From IMG/VR virus record IMGVR_UViG_2778261462_000003: DNA of 5,347 bases; one strand, written 5' to 3'. Shown one piece after another: positions 1 to 5,347 of this stretch. Numbering within the stretch: the first letter of the stretch is position 1; every line of letters starts with the position of its first letter. The DNA comes from a virus. Lineage: Duplodnaviria; Heunggongvirae; Uroviricota; Caudoviricetes. The notes below the pieces were generated by a model. The model worked only from the letters and a program-made list of their open reading frames with translations. It had not been told where the DNA came from and did not search any database. Position numbers and translations under genes: made by a program.

Positions 1-62
1 CTGCGAAATTCAGGCGAATGCTGTTTACGGGGTTTTTTACTGGTTGATACTGTTTTTGTCAT

Positions 63-93
63 GTGAGTCACCTCTGACTGAGAGTTTACTCAC
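63..93. promoter_or_regulatory. Cluster of overlapping dyad symmetries, operator-like, upstream of the first gene
   Basis: GTGAgTCAC palindrome at 63-71; AGTCA-cctc-TGACT at 66-79; GAGT-tt-ACTC at 82-91; GTGAGT (63-68) is the reverse complement of ACTCAC (88-93). Density of symmetry in a non-coding leader suggests repressor or regulator binding sites. No protein partner is identified. Confidence 0.3.
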
Positions 94-111
94 TTAGCCG
101 CGTGTCCACTA

Positions 112-139
112 TTGCTGGGTAAGATCACTTCAGTATGAT
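112..139 (+). promoter_or_regulatory. Candidate sigma70-type promoter for the rightward operon
   Basis: -35-like TTGCTG at 112-117, 16-nt spacer, -10-like TATGAT at 134-139, about 50 nt upstream of the ATG at 192. Hexamer matching by eye only. Confidence 0.2.
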
Positions 140-191: not shown

Positions 192-713
192 ATGAAAATC
201 ACTCCTGAACAGGCTCGTGAGGCTCTGGATGCCTGGATATGTCGACCAGGAATGACACAGGAGCAGGCGACGATATTAATCACTGAAGCATTCTGGGCTT
301 TGAAAGAGCGCCCGAACATCGATGTTCAGCGTGTCACATATGAAGGTGGCGCGATTGATCAGCGAGCGCTTGGCGTTAATCGAGTGAAGATATTTGAACG
401 CTGGAAGGCTATCGACACCAGGGATAAGCGTGAAAAGTTCACGGCGCTAGTGCCTGCAATTATGGAGGCTATCCGGATTAATGATTTCAGGTTGTATCGT
501 GAAATTACTGACGGAAAAAGCATCACGTGCATGATCGCCGGGTTAAACAAAGAATATGGCGATGTGGTGGAGTCCGGACTGCTTTTTGCTGATCCTGCCG
601 TAGTGGATCGTGAAACTGACGAACTTATAGAAAAAGCAATTGCTTTCAAACTTGCGTATCGACAGCAATACCAACAAAAAGCTGGATGGAATTATGAGCC
701 TTCTTTTTGCTGA
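192..713 (+). CDS. Phage early-region protein of unknown function, tentatively YdaT-like
   Basis: 173-aa ORF from the six-frame track, ATG start. Sits immediately upstream of the replication gene and overlaps it by 20 nt. The stretch RWKAIDTRDKREKFTALVPAIMEAI resembles my recollection of the YdaT family found just upstream of replication genes in Rac-like prophages; this is memory, not a computed match. Confidence 0.55.
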   Translation: MKITPEQAREALDAWICRPGMTQEQATILITEAFWALKERPNIDVQRVTYEGGAIDQRALGVNRVKIFERWKAIDTRDKREKFTALVPAIMEAIRINDFRLYREITDGKSITCMIAGLNKEYGDVVESGLLFADPAVVDRETDELIEKAIAFKLAYRQQYQQKAGWNYEPSFC

Positions 714-1659
714 ACGCCCACTGGTTATAAACACGCAGCTGGCAATGAAAATTGGCTTAAACGAAGCCATTGTTTTGCAACAACTGCACTACTGGTTGAG
801 AGATACCAACTCCGGCATGGAATGTGATGGTGTTCGCTGGATTTATAACACAACGGAACAATGGCTGGAACAGTTCCCATTCTGGTCAGAGTCAACGTTA
901 AAGCGCGCGTTTGCAAGTCTGAAAACGCTGGGGCTTTTGCGTTGTGAAAAGCTCAATAAATCAAAGCGCGATATGACCAATTTCTACACGATCAACTATG
1001 GGAGCGAGCTTTTAGATGGTGGCAAATTGAGCGAATCCATCGGTTCAAAATGCGCCGCTCCATCAGGTCAAAATGACACGATGGAAGAGGTCAAAATGAA
1101 ACGCTCCATTGGTTCAAAACGACCCAATGTCATCGGGTCAAAATGGCCTGATGATCTTACAGAGAATACAACAGAGATTACTACAGAGAATAAAAACACT
1201 TTTCGTCCGGAAGCTTCGCAACCGGACCCGCAGACGACTGAACAGGATTTTTTAACCCGGAACTCCGACGCGGTTGTGTTTAGTGCGAAAAAACGCCAGT
1301 GGGGTAGCAGGGAGGATTTGGCGTGTGCGCAGTGGATCTGGGGGCGGATCGTGGGTCTCTACGAACAGGCAGCCAGTGATGATGGCGAGATCATGCGACC
1401 AAAAGAGCCTAACTGGACTGCCTGGGCCAATGACGTGCGCACAATGCGGATGCTGGATGGCAGAAGCCACAGACAAATTTGCGAAATGTTTGGTCGGGTT
1501 CAGCGAGATCCATTCTGGGTAAAAAACATCATGAGCCCGTCAAAGCTCCGCGAAAAATGGGACGAACTGGTCATCCGCCTGGGACGTTCACCTGTACAGC
1601 GTTGTGTTAATCATATTTCTGAACCGGATACAGAAATTCCGCCTGGTTTCAGAGGATAA
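694..1659 (+). CDS. Phage replication initiation protein (lambda O-like replisome organizer)
   Basis: The track ORF is 640-1659; I place the start at the in-frame ATG at 694 (MSLLFAERPLVINTQLAMKIGLNEAIVLQQLHYWL...), which resembles the N-terminus of phage replisome-organizer proteins as I recall them. An iteron array lies inside the gene and encodes the repeated SIGSK / VIGSK linker, the same arrangement as lambda O and ori. Starts at 640 or 745 are not excluded. Confidence 0.75.
   Translation: MSLLFAERPLVINTQLAMKIGLNEAIVLQQLHYWLRDTNSGMECDGVRWIYNTTEQWLEQFPFWSESTLKRAFASLKTLGLLRCEKLNKSKRDMTNFYTINYGSELLDGGKLSESIGSKCAAPSGQNDTMEEVKMKRSIGSKRPNVIGSKWPDDLTENTTEITTENKNTFRPEASQPDPQTTEQDFLTRNSDAVVFSAKKRQWGSREDLACAQWIWGRIVGLYEQAASDDGEIMRPKEPNWTAWANDVRTMRMLDGRSHRQICEMFGRVQRDPFWVKNIMSPSKLREKWDELVIRLGRSPVQRCVNHISEPDTEIPPGFRG
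1036..1145. repeat. Iteron array (probable phage origin of replication) inside the replication gene
   Basis: Five direct repeats, consensus about tCCATCrGkTCAAAAyG: 1036-1052 tccatcggttcaaaatg; 1059-1075 tccatcaggtcaaaatg; 1082-1098 degenerate, core aggtcaaaatg; 1105-1121 tccattggttcaaaacg; 1129-1145 gtcatcgggtcaaaatg. Repeat ends fall at 1052, 1075, 1098, 1121, 1145, i.e. spacing 23, 23, 23, 24 bp. Confidence 0.7.
1159..1189. repeat. Three ACAGAGA direct repeats at 12-bp spacing flanking the iterons (possible unwinding or accessory element of the origin)
   Basis: ACAGAGA at 1159-1165, 1171-1177 and 1183-1189, in a relatively A-rich stretch just downstream of the iterons. Lambda ori has an AT-rich region next to its iterons; the analogy is an inference. 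Confidence 0.35.
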
Positions 1660-1699
1660 GTGTTGATTTCAGGTCATGAGGTAATTTTAAGGGGGACTT

Positions 1700-2122
1700 G
1701 TGGCAAAAGTTTTTACACAAGAAGAGCGGGAAAAAATTAAATGGCAGGTGGTGGAACTCGTGCGCCAGAGCGGCCGTGAGACGTTACGGCAACTGGAAGC
1801 TAAAACAGGTGCGACTAGATATCTGATGAGCGTTCTTGCCAGAGAGCTGGTAGCCAGTGGCGATGTATACAACTCCGGCTACGGGTTATTCCCCTCTGAA
1901 CAGGCGCGTAAGGACTGGCAAAACGCCCGCAAAAAACTCTCGAGGGCAAAGGTGAAGAAACCTGCTGTGGTTGATCCGGACCTTATCTGGTCATCACCTG
2001 ACGGAGAAATACGTCGCTACGACAGTCGCCTAAACATAATCTGTCGCGAGTGCCGGAAGAGCGAAGTTATGCAGCGCATACTGGCTTTCTATCAGGGTAA
2101 TTTTCAGGACGTGGCGCAGTGA
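1700..2122 (+). CDS. Hypothetical phage protein, 140 aa
   Basis: Track ORF with GTG start at 1700, preceded by the purine-rich aagggggac (1688-1696). Its stop TGA (2120-2122) overlaps the GTG start of the next ORF in a GTGA junction, indicating translational coupling. No Walker A motif, so it is not the expected helicase loader. Function unknown. Confidence 0.55.
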   Translation: MAKVFTQEEREKIKWQVVELVRQSGRETLRQLEAKTGATRYLMSVLARELVASGDVYNSGYGLFPSEQARKDWQNARKKLSRAKVKKPAVVDPDLIWSSPDGEIRRYDSRLNIICRECRKSEVMQRILAFYQGNFQDVAQ

Positions 2123-2565
2123 GTGCACCGGCAACCATTCTTGATATGTGCTGTGGCAGCCGCATGTTCTGGTTCGATAAGTCTGACGAACGGGCGATAT
2201 TCAGCGATATCAGAAAAGAAGGATACACATTACGCAATGGGAGACGCTTGATTATCAGCCCTGACATTATCGCAGATTTTCGTGCATTATCATTTGCAGA
2301 CGCATCTTTTTCGATGGTTGTATTAGACCCTCCGCATCTTGAGAGTGTTGGTGATAACGCCTGGATGGGAAAGAAATATGGACGGCTGAATAAAGATGCC
2401 TGGCGTGATGATTCGCGACAGAGATTTAAAGAAGCCTTTCGGGTGTTGAGGCCGCACGGCGTTCTGATTTTTTAATGGAATGAAACGCAAATACCGGTAA
2501 GCCAGATTCTGGCACTGACAGACAGAAAACCTGTTATCTGTCAACGAACAGGGAAAAAACGATAA
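2119..2565 (+). pseudogene. SAM-dependent DNA (adenine) methyltransferase-like gene, disrupted by an in-frame TAA and probably 3'-truncated
   Basis: The 118-aa track ORF (2119-2475) has a glycine-rich LDMCCGSRMFWF segment and DPPH (gac cct ccg cat, about 2326-2337), fitting the (D/N/S)PP(Y/F/W/H) motif IV of amino-methyltransferases. The TAA at 2473-2475 is followed in frame by 29 more sense codons (WNETQIPVSQILALTDRKPVICQRTGKKR) to a TAA at 2563-2565. A single change AAA to TAA would restore ...VLIFKWNETQ. The total is still too short for a complete enzyme. Confidence 0.5.
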
Positions 2566-2714
2566 AACCCACTGGATTATTTTTATGAAAGAGGCATCCA
2601 GTGAGTAGATTCGTAAGGCTACAGATACGTATATCTGAATAATTAAATTCAGTTCTGTAAATAAAATTTAATCCTTAACCGGATGGATTTCTGCACCCTC
2701 AGAACATCAGGAGG

Positions 2715-4141: not shown

Positions 4142-5260
4142 ATGATCAAAGAGACTGTTACGATGAGTCATAAGGAACTCCACCGACTTCAGATTATTCA
4201 GGAACAAGCTGCGGCACGCATTGGCATTTCTATTCGGCAGGTTAAACGTCTGGTGCAACGGTATAGAAATGAAGGGCCTTCTGGTCTGGTTTCCCACCGA
4301 CGTGGAAAGCGTCCTAATAATTCCTTTTCTACTGAATTCAGAGCAACAGTAATTTCACTCCTCAAAGGCCGTTACGCTGATTTTGGACCTACGTTTGCGT
4401 GCGAAAAATTGCGCGAGATACACGGTTTATCTTTATCCGTTGAAACTCTCAGAAAGTGGATGATAGAAGAGGGGTTATGGCGTGAACGCCGTCGTAAAAT
4501 TGCCCGTATATATCAACGCCGCATGCGACGACCATCTTACGGTGAACTGATCCAGATTGATGGCTCACCTCATGACTGGTTTGAAAATCGAGGCCCCAGA
4601 TGTACACTGATCGTTTTCATTGATGATGCCACCAGTGCGTTGATGGCGTTGCGTTTTGTGCCTGCTGAAACAACCCGGGCTTACATGGAAACCCTCCGGG
4701 GTTACCTTAATGATCATGTCGTACCGCTCGCTCTCTACTCTGATAGACACAGTATATTCAGGGTAAATAACCCAGAGCGGGAAGGTGAGCTGACCCAGTT
4801 CACTCGTGCGATAAAGACACTGGGCATCGAGCCAATCCATGCCAACAGCCCGCAGGCAAAAGGGCGGGTAGAGCGCGCCAATCAGACACTACAGGACAGG
4901 CTGGTCAAAGAAATGCGGCTTCAGAATATCAGTGATATTGAAACAGCAAATGCATGGTTGCCGACCTTTATTGAAGCCTATAACAACCGGTTCGCTACGT
5001 CGCCTCGTACTACTGATAATGCTCATCTTGATGTGCACCATTCTGAAGAGGAACTGGGTTATATCTTCAGCCTACAGGCGAAGCGCGTTCTGTCTAAAAA
5101 TCTCACTTTCCAGTACAAAAGCAGTGCGTTTCAGGTACGCAGTGAGGGCCGGGGATATCGACTTAGGCATTCGGTTGTTACTGTATGCGAGAACTTTGAC
5201 GGTGAAATTAACGTTCTGTATGAACCGCCCCGGGTTTCCTGGAGAGTGTTTTATCTGTGA
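4142..5260 (+). CDS. DDE transposase with integrase-core (rve-like) catalytic domain, IS481/ISNCY-like
   Basis: 372-aa track ORF. N-terminal helix-turn-helix-like region (GISIRQVKRLVQRYRNEGPSGLVSHRRGKRPNN), then the catalytic triad in its usual contexts: IQIDGSPHDW, LALYSDRHSIF and KGRVERANQTLQDRL. Family assignment is from memory of ISNCY/IS481-type N-termini (MS.KEL.RL.IIQ...GLV..RGK.SN). The stop at 5258-5260 may be premature if homologs are longer. Confidence 0.75.
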   Translation: MIKETVTMSHKELHRLQIIQEQAAARIGISIRQVKRLVQRYRNEGPSGLVSHRRGKRPNNSFSTEFRATVISLLKGRYADFGPTFACEKLREIHGLSLSVETLRKWMIEEGLWRERRRKIARIYQRRMRRPSYGELIQIDGSPHDWFENRGPRCTLIVFIDDATSALMALRFVPAETTRAYMETLRGYLNDHVVPLALYSDRHSIFRVNNPEREGELTQFTRAIKTLGIEPIHANSPQAKGRVERANQTLQDRLVKEMRLQNISDIETANAWLPTFIEAYNNRFATSPRTTDNAHLDVHHSEEELGYIFSLQAKRVLSKNLTFQYKSSAFQVRSEGRGYRLRHSVVTVCENFDGEINVLYEPPRVSWRVFYL

Positions 5261-5347
5261 ACTCAGGCTGCCAGATCATCGTTTCCGATGGAAGCATAAT
5301 AAGCTTTTTCTGCTTCTGCCGGAGGAGTATGGCCCAGCCTTTCCAGC

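Follow-up and report, generated by a model that had tools for sequence, protein, structure and literature searches.

A lambdoid replication module without a helicase-loader gene and the DnaT-type tail of its initiator

Introduction

A 5,347-nucleotide (nt) stretch of viral DNA (IMG/VR virus record IMGVR_UViG_2778261462_000003; the window, below, means this whole stretch) contains a lambdoid replication module in which the gene for a lambda O-like initiator is followed by no recognizable helicase-loader gene. The module raises the question of how DnaB would be brought to an origin opened by such an initiator. A sequence-only reading of the same DNA offered three answers: the loader was lost from a defective prophage, the 140-amino-acid (aa) product of the next gene recruits the host loader, or the C-terminal part of the initiator does so. 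This interpretation is supported in part; only the last alternative finds support, from comparative evidence. The end of the initiator matches the end of Escherichia coli DnaT, and comparison of tails and loader genes in related loci suggests that the module is probably an intact "O-only" one, whose initiator would obtain the host DnaB-DnaC complex through its DnaT-type tail.

Results and Discussion

The window contains no loader gene

The initiator gene (positions 694..1659, plus strand, ATG at 694) codes for a 321-aa protein that matches PHROG 391, "replication initiation O-like" (expectation value, E, 1e-91). Its sequence is the same as that of WP_000054512-type proteins and of O from phage PhiR42_1. 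The sequence-only reading had placed the gene correctly, although the length of 322 residues it gave was wrong. Open reading frames (ORFs) and family searches agree with the gene order it described, i.e., the initiator, a 140-aa gene without a Walker A motif, and a methyltransferase remnant. No [AG]xxxxGK[ST] Walker A motif was found in the six frames of window positions 600-2700, and no window ORF matched DnaC/IstB, lambda P, or DnaB in Pfam, PHROGs, or NCBIfam. The DnaC-like AAA+ loader family PF01695 had no match in the window, while YdaV of the Rac prophage, used as a positive control, matched it. A P-type loader was found beside the initiator neither in the window nor in at least 120 loci with the same initiator tail (see below). 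In Rac, the order is ydaU, ydaV (DnaC-like, PF01695), DUF1627, and DUF977. Since Rac-type modules carry the dnaC-like gene together with DUF1627, both genes are missing here relative to Rac, and the lack of a helicase loader in comparison with Rac-like modules is therefore confirmed.

The initiator ends in a DnaT-type tail

The last 21 residues of the initiator, VQRCVNHISEPDTEIPPGFRG-COOH (residues 301-321; 1594..1656, plus strand), correspond to the very end of E. coli DnaT in a PDB sequence search and in NCBIfam, where the tail gave the only match of the protein. Pairwise BLASTP with Salmonella DnaT aligned 20 tail residues, 14 of them identical (E 2e-8). The shared motif is R-D-V-N-x-I-S-x-P-D-x-x-I-P-x-G-F-R-G-COOH, and residues 303-321 of the initiator, RCVNHISEPDTEIPPGFRG, are directly followed by the stop codon. 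The tail is predicted to be disordered (predicted local distance difference test, pLDDT, below 50 in an AlphaFold2 (AF2) model). Outside the tail, and including the C-terminal domain, pairwise comparison revealed no similarity between the initiator and DnaT. The three-helix domain PF17948, present in DnaT and in the initiator of phage SPN1S, is absent. Because the match is limited to the last 20-21 residues, and neither PF17948 nor the N-terminal oligomerisation domain of DnaT is present, the initiator does not belong to the DnaT family and has only the tail in common with it. The sequence-only reading had named homology of the initiator C-terminus or the 140-aa protein to a loader or helicase-binding domain as evidence against it; what emerged was a recognizable element of the helicase-loading pathway in the initiator, and not a loader gene.

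The match was also recovered when DnaT was left out of the query. A profile of 20 distinct initiator tails, taken from phages and prophages, was searched against all PDB sequences; three DnaT entries were the sole matches (E 2.5e-11 to 1.3e-10), with nothing else up to E=10.

The distribution of the tail was determined by a degenerate-DNA scan of IMG/VR for P-D-x-x-I-P-x-G-F-R-G-stop, which yielded at least 120 loci. Every match listed was the end of an ORF, complete ORFs were mostly 260-400 aa long, and all but two contained the longer motif R-[DCQ]-x-N-x-[IV]-[SP]-x-P-D. The tail caps at least 10 mutually non-aligning initiator bodies, including the window type, the Tritos/Stx-75/02 type, Rac YdaU, the Gifsy O type (Phage_rep_O), and the SPN1S type. 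The last of these holds the whole DnaT C-terminal domain (65% identity over 94 residues, E 8e-43) and is not accompanied by a loader gene. When the same scan was run on one genome per bacterial species, matches came almost solely from Enterobacterales, with host DnaT (179-181 aa) making up ca. two thirds of them. In host DnaT, the tail is retained in many Enterobacterales genera and the adjoining residues on its N-terminal side vary; no part of DnaT is better conserved between genera than the hydrophobic tail core, IPPGF. In 68 of the 70 loci with enough flanking sequence, dnaC directly follows dnaT.

Two further observations concern the tail-coding DNA. The last 19-20 residues, RCVNHISEPDTEIPPGFRG, are identical in the initiators of the window (1615-1659), Tritos, and Stx phage 75/02 (L008 3001-3063; L009 3001-3060), whose bodies are unrelated. 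Because unrelated bodies share the tail, and Tritos also shares the 40-nt spacer and the DUF977 gene downstream, a recombination joint (mosaic) inside the tail-coding DNA of these initiators is suggested. One representative initiator, P0194, carries a tandem double tail motif (...IPKGFRG...EIPHGFRG).

Tail type tracks loader type

Genes downstream of the tail were compared in 104 non-redundant viral loci, drawn from the listed matches with a DnaT-type tail and at least 900 nt of downstream sequence. A DnaC-like gene started between -4 and +6 nt from the initiator stop codon in 61 of these listed loci. In another 34, DUF977 was located at +40 nt and homologues of DnaC, P, and DnaB were absent from the retrieved locus, and nine had other genes and no loader, so that 43 loci were loader-less; a P or DnaB-like gene was present in none of the 104. 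As a control, the lambda O tail, D-x-x-N-T-D-W-x-Y-G, which sits on the same kind of C-terminal domain, was scanned for in the same way. In 95 of 97 non-redundant loci, the end of O overlapped a lambda P homologue by 4 nt, and P was still within the locus in the remaining two; DnaC was the next gene in none of the 97. Thus, the type of tail tracks the type of loader. That the DnaT-type tail also occurs without any phage loader is as expected if its partner is made by the host; enterobacteria make DnaC and a DnaT with the same tail, and do not make P.

An independent sample consisted of the 80 closest relatives of the window C-terminal domain, picked regardless of tail, which gave 60 usable non-redundant loci. 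All of these domains are at least 83% identical, and the sample was used for counts of modules with and without DnaC, being unfit as a control for other tails. In half of the loci (30/60), the initiator is followed by a DnaC-like gene, usually DUF1627, and then DUF977, while DUF977 follows directly in 29/60. All 60 initiators end in EPDTEIP(P/Q)GFRG.

DUF1627 nearly always accompanies a phage dnaC-like gene in the order O, DnaC, DUF1627, DUF977 (L012 2741-3517, L009 3833-4603, and many IMG/VR loci). Among the listed loci, it is missing whenever dnaC is missing, except for two in which DUF1627 directly follows the initiator, and DnaC without DUF1627 was seen in three or four. DUF1627 may be an accessory of phage DnaC.

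Proteins with a lambda-O-type C-terminal domain (P0121-P0269) end in a few recurring, mutually exclusive tails. Besides ...IPxGFRG and the lambda-type ...D(F/L)xNTDWxYG.., these are ...HWNSxEAWENTL / ...EWNTEEGWRGML, ...DYxxGVxxDGSF, and ...GIxVPxxEVxL. Tails other than the DnaT and lambda types may mark further loader or helicase specificities.

The loader-less module occurs in deposited phages

A tblastn search of phage genomes found the window initiator at 100% identity in PhiR42_1 (host listed as ECOR13), 99.4% in HannyBb (isolated from bird faeces), and 98% in mEp460_ev081. In all three, O is followed by DUF977 with nothing in between. In phage Tritos, the same DUF977 is likewise preceded by a 40-nt spacer, and the initiator in front of that spacer has an unrelated body. 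The complete genome of HannyBb has no annotated loader or helicase, and a six-frame search of it with DnaC, lambda P, and P22 gp12 as queries was negative; its Walker A motifs are limited to the terminase large subunit and two short matches in ORFs at the position of the lysis genes. The module thus consists of O only in the window and across the whole HannyBb genome. Initiators without an adjoining loader gene were also found in SfII, SfIV, mEp460_4F5, SPN1S, KpF5, vB_EcoS-733R5, and Klebsiella phage ST147-VIM1phi7.2. Among the listed matches, the loader-less form accounts for 29-34 non-redundant viral contigs with two unrelated initiator bodies.

Modules of this kind have been noted before. 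O-only modules were reported in 34 of 314 lambdoid phages, with their replication called "not yet understood", and the replication module of phage LLS, which was grown experimentally and forms plaques, consists of an O homologue alone (2025, Genome Research, PMC12315714). The window module belongs to this class. All O-only phages examined carry the tail core or a variant of it. The full motif is present in HannyBb, PhiR42_1, and Tritos; the LLS initiator ends in ...DTKIPEGFRG, those of SfII and mEp460_4F5 in ...DYSQIPAGFRG, and that of SPN1S in ...PDSEIPPGFRG, while Klebsiella-type initiators have a looser ...PxGFRS/T. The LLS, SfII, SfIV, and mEp460_4F5 modules resemble the window in having a single O-homologue gene with an (I/V)PxGFRG end and no helicase or loader. 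They differ from it in initiator type, in their neighbours (PerC-like, Dam, or methyltransferase genes), and in tails that lack the upstream RDVNxIS.

These results bear on the explanation, raised by the sequence-only reading, that the module is a deletion derivative that has lost its dnaC-like loader in a prophage unable to replicate autonomously. Half of the closest relatives carry the dnaC-like gene and DUF1627 exactly where the window has the 40-nt spacer between the initiator and DUF977 (1660..1699, plus strand; the length is the same in all 34 loader-less O-to-DUF977 loci among the listed matches). Part of the spacer (1677-1699) resembles the end of a dnaC-like gene and the intergenic region behind it, and this copy of the prophage is decayed in other respects, with IS3 in dicC, a truncated ISNCY transposase gene, and a methyltransferase pseudogene. 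Against this, the loader-less form is as common as the form with a loader, is 100% identical in PhiR42_1 and 98-99% identical in HannyBb and mEp460_ev081, and is shared by two unrelated initiator bodies on the 29-34 contigs mentioned above; HannyBb has no loader in its entire genome, and the O-only LLS grows in the laboratory. Since the same loader-less module is found in deposited phages, the missing loader is very likely not a matter of prophage decay. We consider it quite improbable that the module is a defective derivative, and conclude that it is very likely naturally loader-less. The solo form may well have arisen by deletion of dnaC, which would not by itself make the replicon defective.

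The spacer was also considered as a relic of a deleted dnaC. Window positions 1677-1699 align to the last 8 nt of the dnaC-like gene of one sibling locus (L112) and its intergenic region, which includes a shared ribosome-binding region. Because the stretch is short, the similarity is weak evidence; ca. 8 nt of coding sequence is too little for significance, and the relic was not relied on.

The initiator body and a putative in-gene origin

The initiator has an N-terminal winged-helix (DnaD-N/HTH_36-like) DNA-binding domain at ca. residues 1-103 (694..1002, plus strand; PHROG 6493 over residues 2-168 and PHROG 11233 over residues 11-103). Pfam gave no match above threshold for the protein, including the N-terminal family Phage_rep_O (PF04492), which does match lambda O and Gifsy-2 O. 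The N-terminal half is 72% identical to that of a Klebsiella phage initiator whose C-terminal half differs. Residues 147-294 (1132..1575, plus strand) form a lambda-O-type C-terminal domain, being 34% identical to lambda O residues 135-270 over 148 residues (BLASTP, E 1e-26), and the AF2 model predicts a helical bundle at residues 206-295. The link to lambda O was obtained by pairwise BLASTP and a search of representative proteins; family profiles gave none. Domains of this type are widespread, with 2947 representative proteins at E<=1e-3. The aligned region falls within the C-terminal part of lambda O, the part held to contact P.

A repeat search revealed five iterons with the core GG(T)TCAAAA(T/C)G at 1037..1153, spaced 23-24 bp start to start (core positions 1042, 1066, 1089, 1111, and 1135), within the part of the initiator gene that codes for the linker. 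Just to the right lies a 60-nt AT-rich stretch (1140..1199; 65-68% A+T versus ca. 50% in the flanks) with a TACAGAGAATA(C/A)AA direct repeat, likely the unwinding region. This arrangement of an iteron array and an AT-rich stretch is of the lambda type and marks a putative origin; in lambda, gene O likewise contains four iterons together with an AT-rich region, at the corresponding relative position.

The putative origin is relevant to the idea that the phage has no dedicated loader pathway and initiates replication by recombination or through DnaA. Growth of LLS-type phages is reported to depend on host RecBCD/Chi recombination (PMC12315714). Such recombination-dependent growth reflects late concatemer formation, however, and DnaB would still have to be loaded. 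A full iteron origin is moreover present in a conserved initiator gene, and there is no perfect DnaA box anywhere in the window, so that a DnaA-dependent origin is unsupported. We therefore regard initiation without a loader pathway as very improbable.

The DUF977 protein is a poor candidate for a loader

The 140-aa product of the gene that follows the spacer (1700..2122, plus strand; Pfam DUF977, PF06163, E 5.1e-29; PHROG "Ren-like") matches the family over its full length (residues 1-136 to profile positions 1-134 of 134). Its fold, with an N-terminal winged helix, is like that of transcription regulators; it is weakly similar to lambda Ren and has no ATPase motif. A role as a new helicase loader or adaptor in place of DnaC or P would fit its position directly after the initiator in all 34 listed loader-less O-to-DUF977 loci. 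However, DUF977 occurs just as well behind modules with DnaC (Rac, Stx 75/02, and ca. 40 listed loci), and it is absent from other O-only phages, which have a PerC-like gene (SfII and mEp460_4F5), DUF1064 (SPN1S), or a methyltransferase gene (LLS). Together with the winged-helix fold, the Ren similarity, and the lack of an ATPase motif, this makes a loader function extremely improbable. The same distribution lends no support to the 140-aa protein as the recruiter of a host loader. We infer that DUF977 is not a loader and is the positional counterpart of lambda ren.

A proposed mechanism

In the mechanism that we propose, the initiator would assemble on the iterons and open the AT-rich region, and its DnaT-type tail would then couple to a DnaB-DnaC complex, which in the loader-less form would be that of the host. 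This would parallel lambda, in which O couples to phage P by way of a different tail and domain. In siblings that have a phage dnaC paralogue, the same tail would work with the phage-encoded DnaC, the paralogue and DUF1627 forming an optional cassette; phage dnaC would be dispensable, and present in only about half of the relatives, because the host supplies DnaC. Coupling of the initiator C-terminus to the host loader, one of the possibilities raised initially, is supported by comparative evidence, namely the lambda-O-type domain, the DnaT-type tail, and the co-occurrence of tail and loader types. As judged from these sequence comparisons, an intact O-only module served by host DnaB-DnaC through the tail is probable, and for the narrower claim that the tail itself is the coupling element, we consider the chances to be about even.

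Several points weigh against this proposal. The loci in which tail and loader covary are not phylogenetically independent, and because the tail codons abut the dnaC start, the covariation could partly reflect linkage in mosaic recombination and not function. The partner of the DnaT-type tail is deduced from sequence comparison. No DnaT-DnaC interaction was documented according to a 2017 review (PMC5778457), removal of DnaT residues 154-179 modestly lowers cooperative binding to single-stranded DNA (2014, PMC4132743), and a 2026 preprimosome paper speculates that it is the N-terminal domain of DnaT that recruits DnaB/DnaC (PMC13377028). PhiR42_1, HannyBb, and Tritos are taken to be viable because each was deposited as a phage genome for which a host is named. 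Finally, the copy in the window may be silent, without expression from pR (see below).

The same tail could act by another route, in which it docks the initiator onto PriA or the restart preprimosome and not straight onto DnaB-DnaC. The opened origin would then be treated as an abandoned fork is, with PriA and PriB, and perhaps host DnaT, delivering DnaB from DnaB-DnaC. By cryo-electron microscopy, the DnaT C-terminal domain sits on PriA in the preprimosome through a hydrophobic, highly conserved interface (PMC13377028), which recalls the hydrophobic and most conserved IPPGF core of the tail; all of the DnaT C-terminal domain is present in the SPN1S initiator; and the covariation fits as well, since DnaC is needed on this route too. 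The text of PMC13377028, however, does not place residues 160-179 at the PriA interface, and the crystal fragment fitted to the density ends at residue 153. In addition, most tail-bearing initiators have the tail alone, without the three-helix DNA-binding domain PF17948, and the tight succession of tail and dnaC (-4 to +6 nt in 61 listed loci) points more simply to DnaC. Docking onto PriA thus appears unlikely, although less so than the alternatives discussed above, and we favour coupling of the tail to DnaB-DnaC.

Relation to known systems and implications

The module shares with lambda O/P the position of the initiator gene after a cII-like gene, mid-gene iterons with an AT-rich stretch, a homologous C-terminal domain, and a ren-like gene downstream. 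It differs in having no P, in an N-terminal domain that is not Phage_rep_O, and in the last ca. 25 residues of the initiator, which are of the DnaT type and not the lambda ...DLTNTDWIYGVDL. With Rac ydaU-ydaV, gp15-gp16 of Stx phage 75/02, and the Gifsy-2 O and DnaC-like pair, it has the DnaT-type tail in common; DUF977 is likewise found downstream of initiator-DnaC modules, the arrangement of half of the window-type initiators. Unlike Rac, Gifsy, and 75/02, the window lacks the dnaC-like gene and DUF1627, and the initiator bodies are unrelated outside the tail.

The host dnaT-dnaC pair (region at L013 1024-2303) resembles phage O-DnaC pairs in its identical tail motif and in dnaC starting 2 nt past the dnaT stop codon. 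DnaT differs from the window initiator in having PF17948 and no origin-binding domain or iterons, and in working with PriA and PriB on forks. The same 2-nt junction and tail in host and phage pairs, and the entire DnaT C-terminal domain in SPN1S, fit with dnaT and dnaC having been domesticated together from a phage replication module. A domesticated lambda O/P-like pair has been described as DopC/DopE, DopC combining an O-like N-terminal helix-turn-helix domain with a DnaT C-terminal motif (Brezellec et al. 2017, PMC5509034). In contrast to the window initiator, DopC is chromosomal, has no iterons, and is paired with a P-domain protein, and its DnaT motif replaces the O C-terminus; in the window initiator, the lambda-O-type C-terminal domain is kept and the tail merely added.

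It is tempting to generalize that the DnaT-type tail is a portable peptide recruiting the helicase-loading machinery, common to host DnaT and a dozen or more unrelated phage initiator families. We put this forward tentatively, as somewhat doubtful. In the searchable literature, we found no statement that the tail alone is the shared unit, that it caps many unrelated initiators, that it pairs solely with DnaC-type loaders or with none, or that it sits on O-only initiators. If the generalization is true, the tail, and not the body of the initiator, would specify the loader: DnaC, of phage or host, for the DnaT type and P for the lambda type. It would also explain the replication of O-only lambdoid phages, and would make the C-terminal tail, and not the N-terminal domain proposed in 2026, the element of DnaT that brings DnaB-DnaC to restart. 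O-only modules occur in ca. one lambdoid phage in nine, and the recruitment of DnaB-DnaC by DnaT was left open in the literature of both 2017 and 2026; the two questions would be linked by one short, conserved, disordered peptide. For annotation, a lambdoid prophage with an initiator and no loader gene should not be counted as replication-defective for that reason, and where RAST-style annotation calls a phage O protein "primosomal protein I", the name reflects nothing more than the shared tail.

The locus and the condition of this prophage copy

The window belongs to an E. coli lambdoid prophage of the Qin-like kind (dicA/dicC immunity), and hundreds of E. coli chromosomes match it at 99-100% identity. 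In strain cq9, the corresponding region is flanked by ynfF/rspB and the Qin late genes, and the order is int, xis, exonuclease, dicB, dicA, dicC, a YdaT-family gene, a 321-aa "hypothetical protein", the DUF977 gene, methyltransferase, pseudogenes, and a truncated ISNCY transposase gene. The YdaT-family/cII-like gene (192..713, plus strand, 173 aa; Pfam YdaT_toxin E 4.5e-5; PHROG 163 "CII-like" E 5.5e-40; RefSeq annotation) is in the same operon as the initiator gene, lies directly 5' of it, and overlaps its start. The lambda-type succession of dicA/dicC, the YdaT/cII-like gene, and the initiator gene was found in the RefSeq-annotated locus L001, PhiR42_1, and HannyBb.

Window positions 1-127 (minus strand) are an exact left end of IS3 with the first transposase codons (MTKTVSTSKKPRKQHSPEF...), inserted in the cro-like dicC; the YdaT-like gene lies 64 nt downstream of the insertion. 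In this copy, IS3 therefore separates the replication genes from their usual rightward early promoter.

The gene for a SAM (S-adenosylmethionine)-dependent DNA methyltransferase (2119..2602, plus strand; PHROG 954, E 6.7e-58, profile positions 52-165 of 229) begins with a 118-aa ORF (2119-2475) whose start overlaps the end of the 140-aa ORF (2119 versus 2122). Three-frame translation revealed an in-frame TAA at 2473-2475 (LIF-stop-WNETQIP...) and then a frameshift in an A-run near 2553 (...QRTGK / NDKTHWIIFMKEASSE-stop), and the gene is therefore a pseudogene. The same truncated 118-aa ORF is annotated in PhiR42_1, for which the methyltransferase is thus dispensable.

In every relative, the annotation of the ISNCY-family transposase gene (4142-5260) gives it as incomplete at the C-terminal end. 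The last 124 nt of the window (5224-5347) are absent at this site in strains cq9 and USDA-ARS-USMARC-50748, so a further insertion probably abuts the ISNCY gene. Between the methyltransferase remnant and small broken ORFs (a DUF7167 pseudogene), a G+C-rich hairpin, GGCCGCCCGAAAGGGCGG, at 2700-2740 looks like a terminator or an element of the REP (repetitive extragenic palindromic) type.

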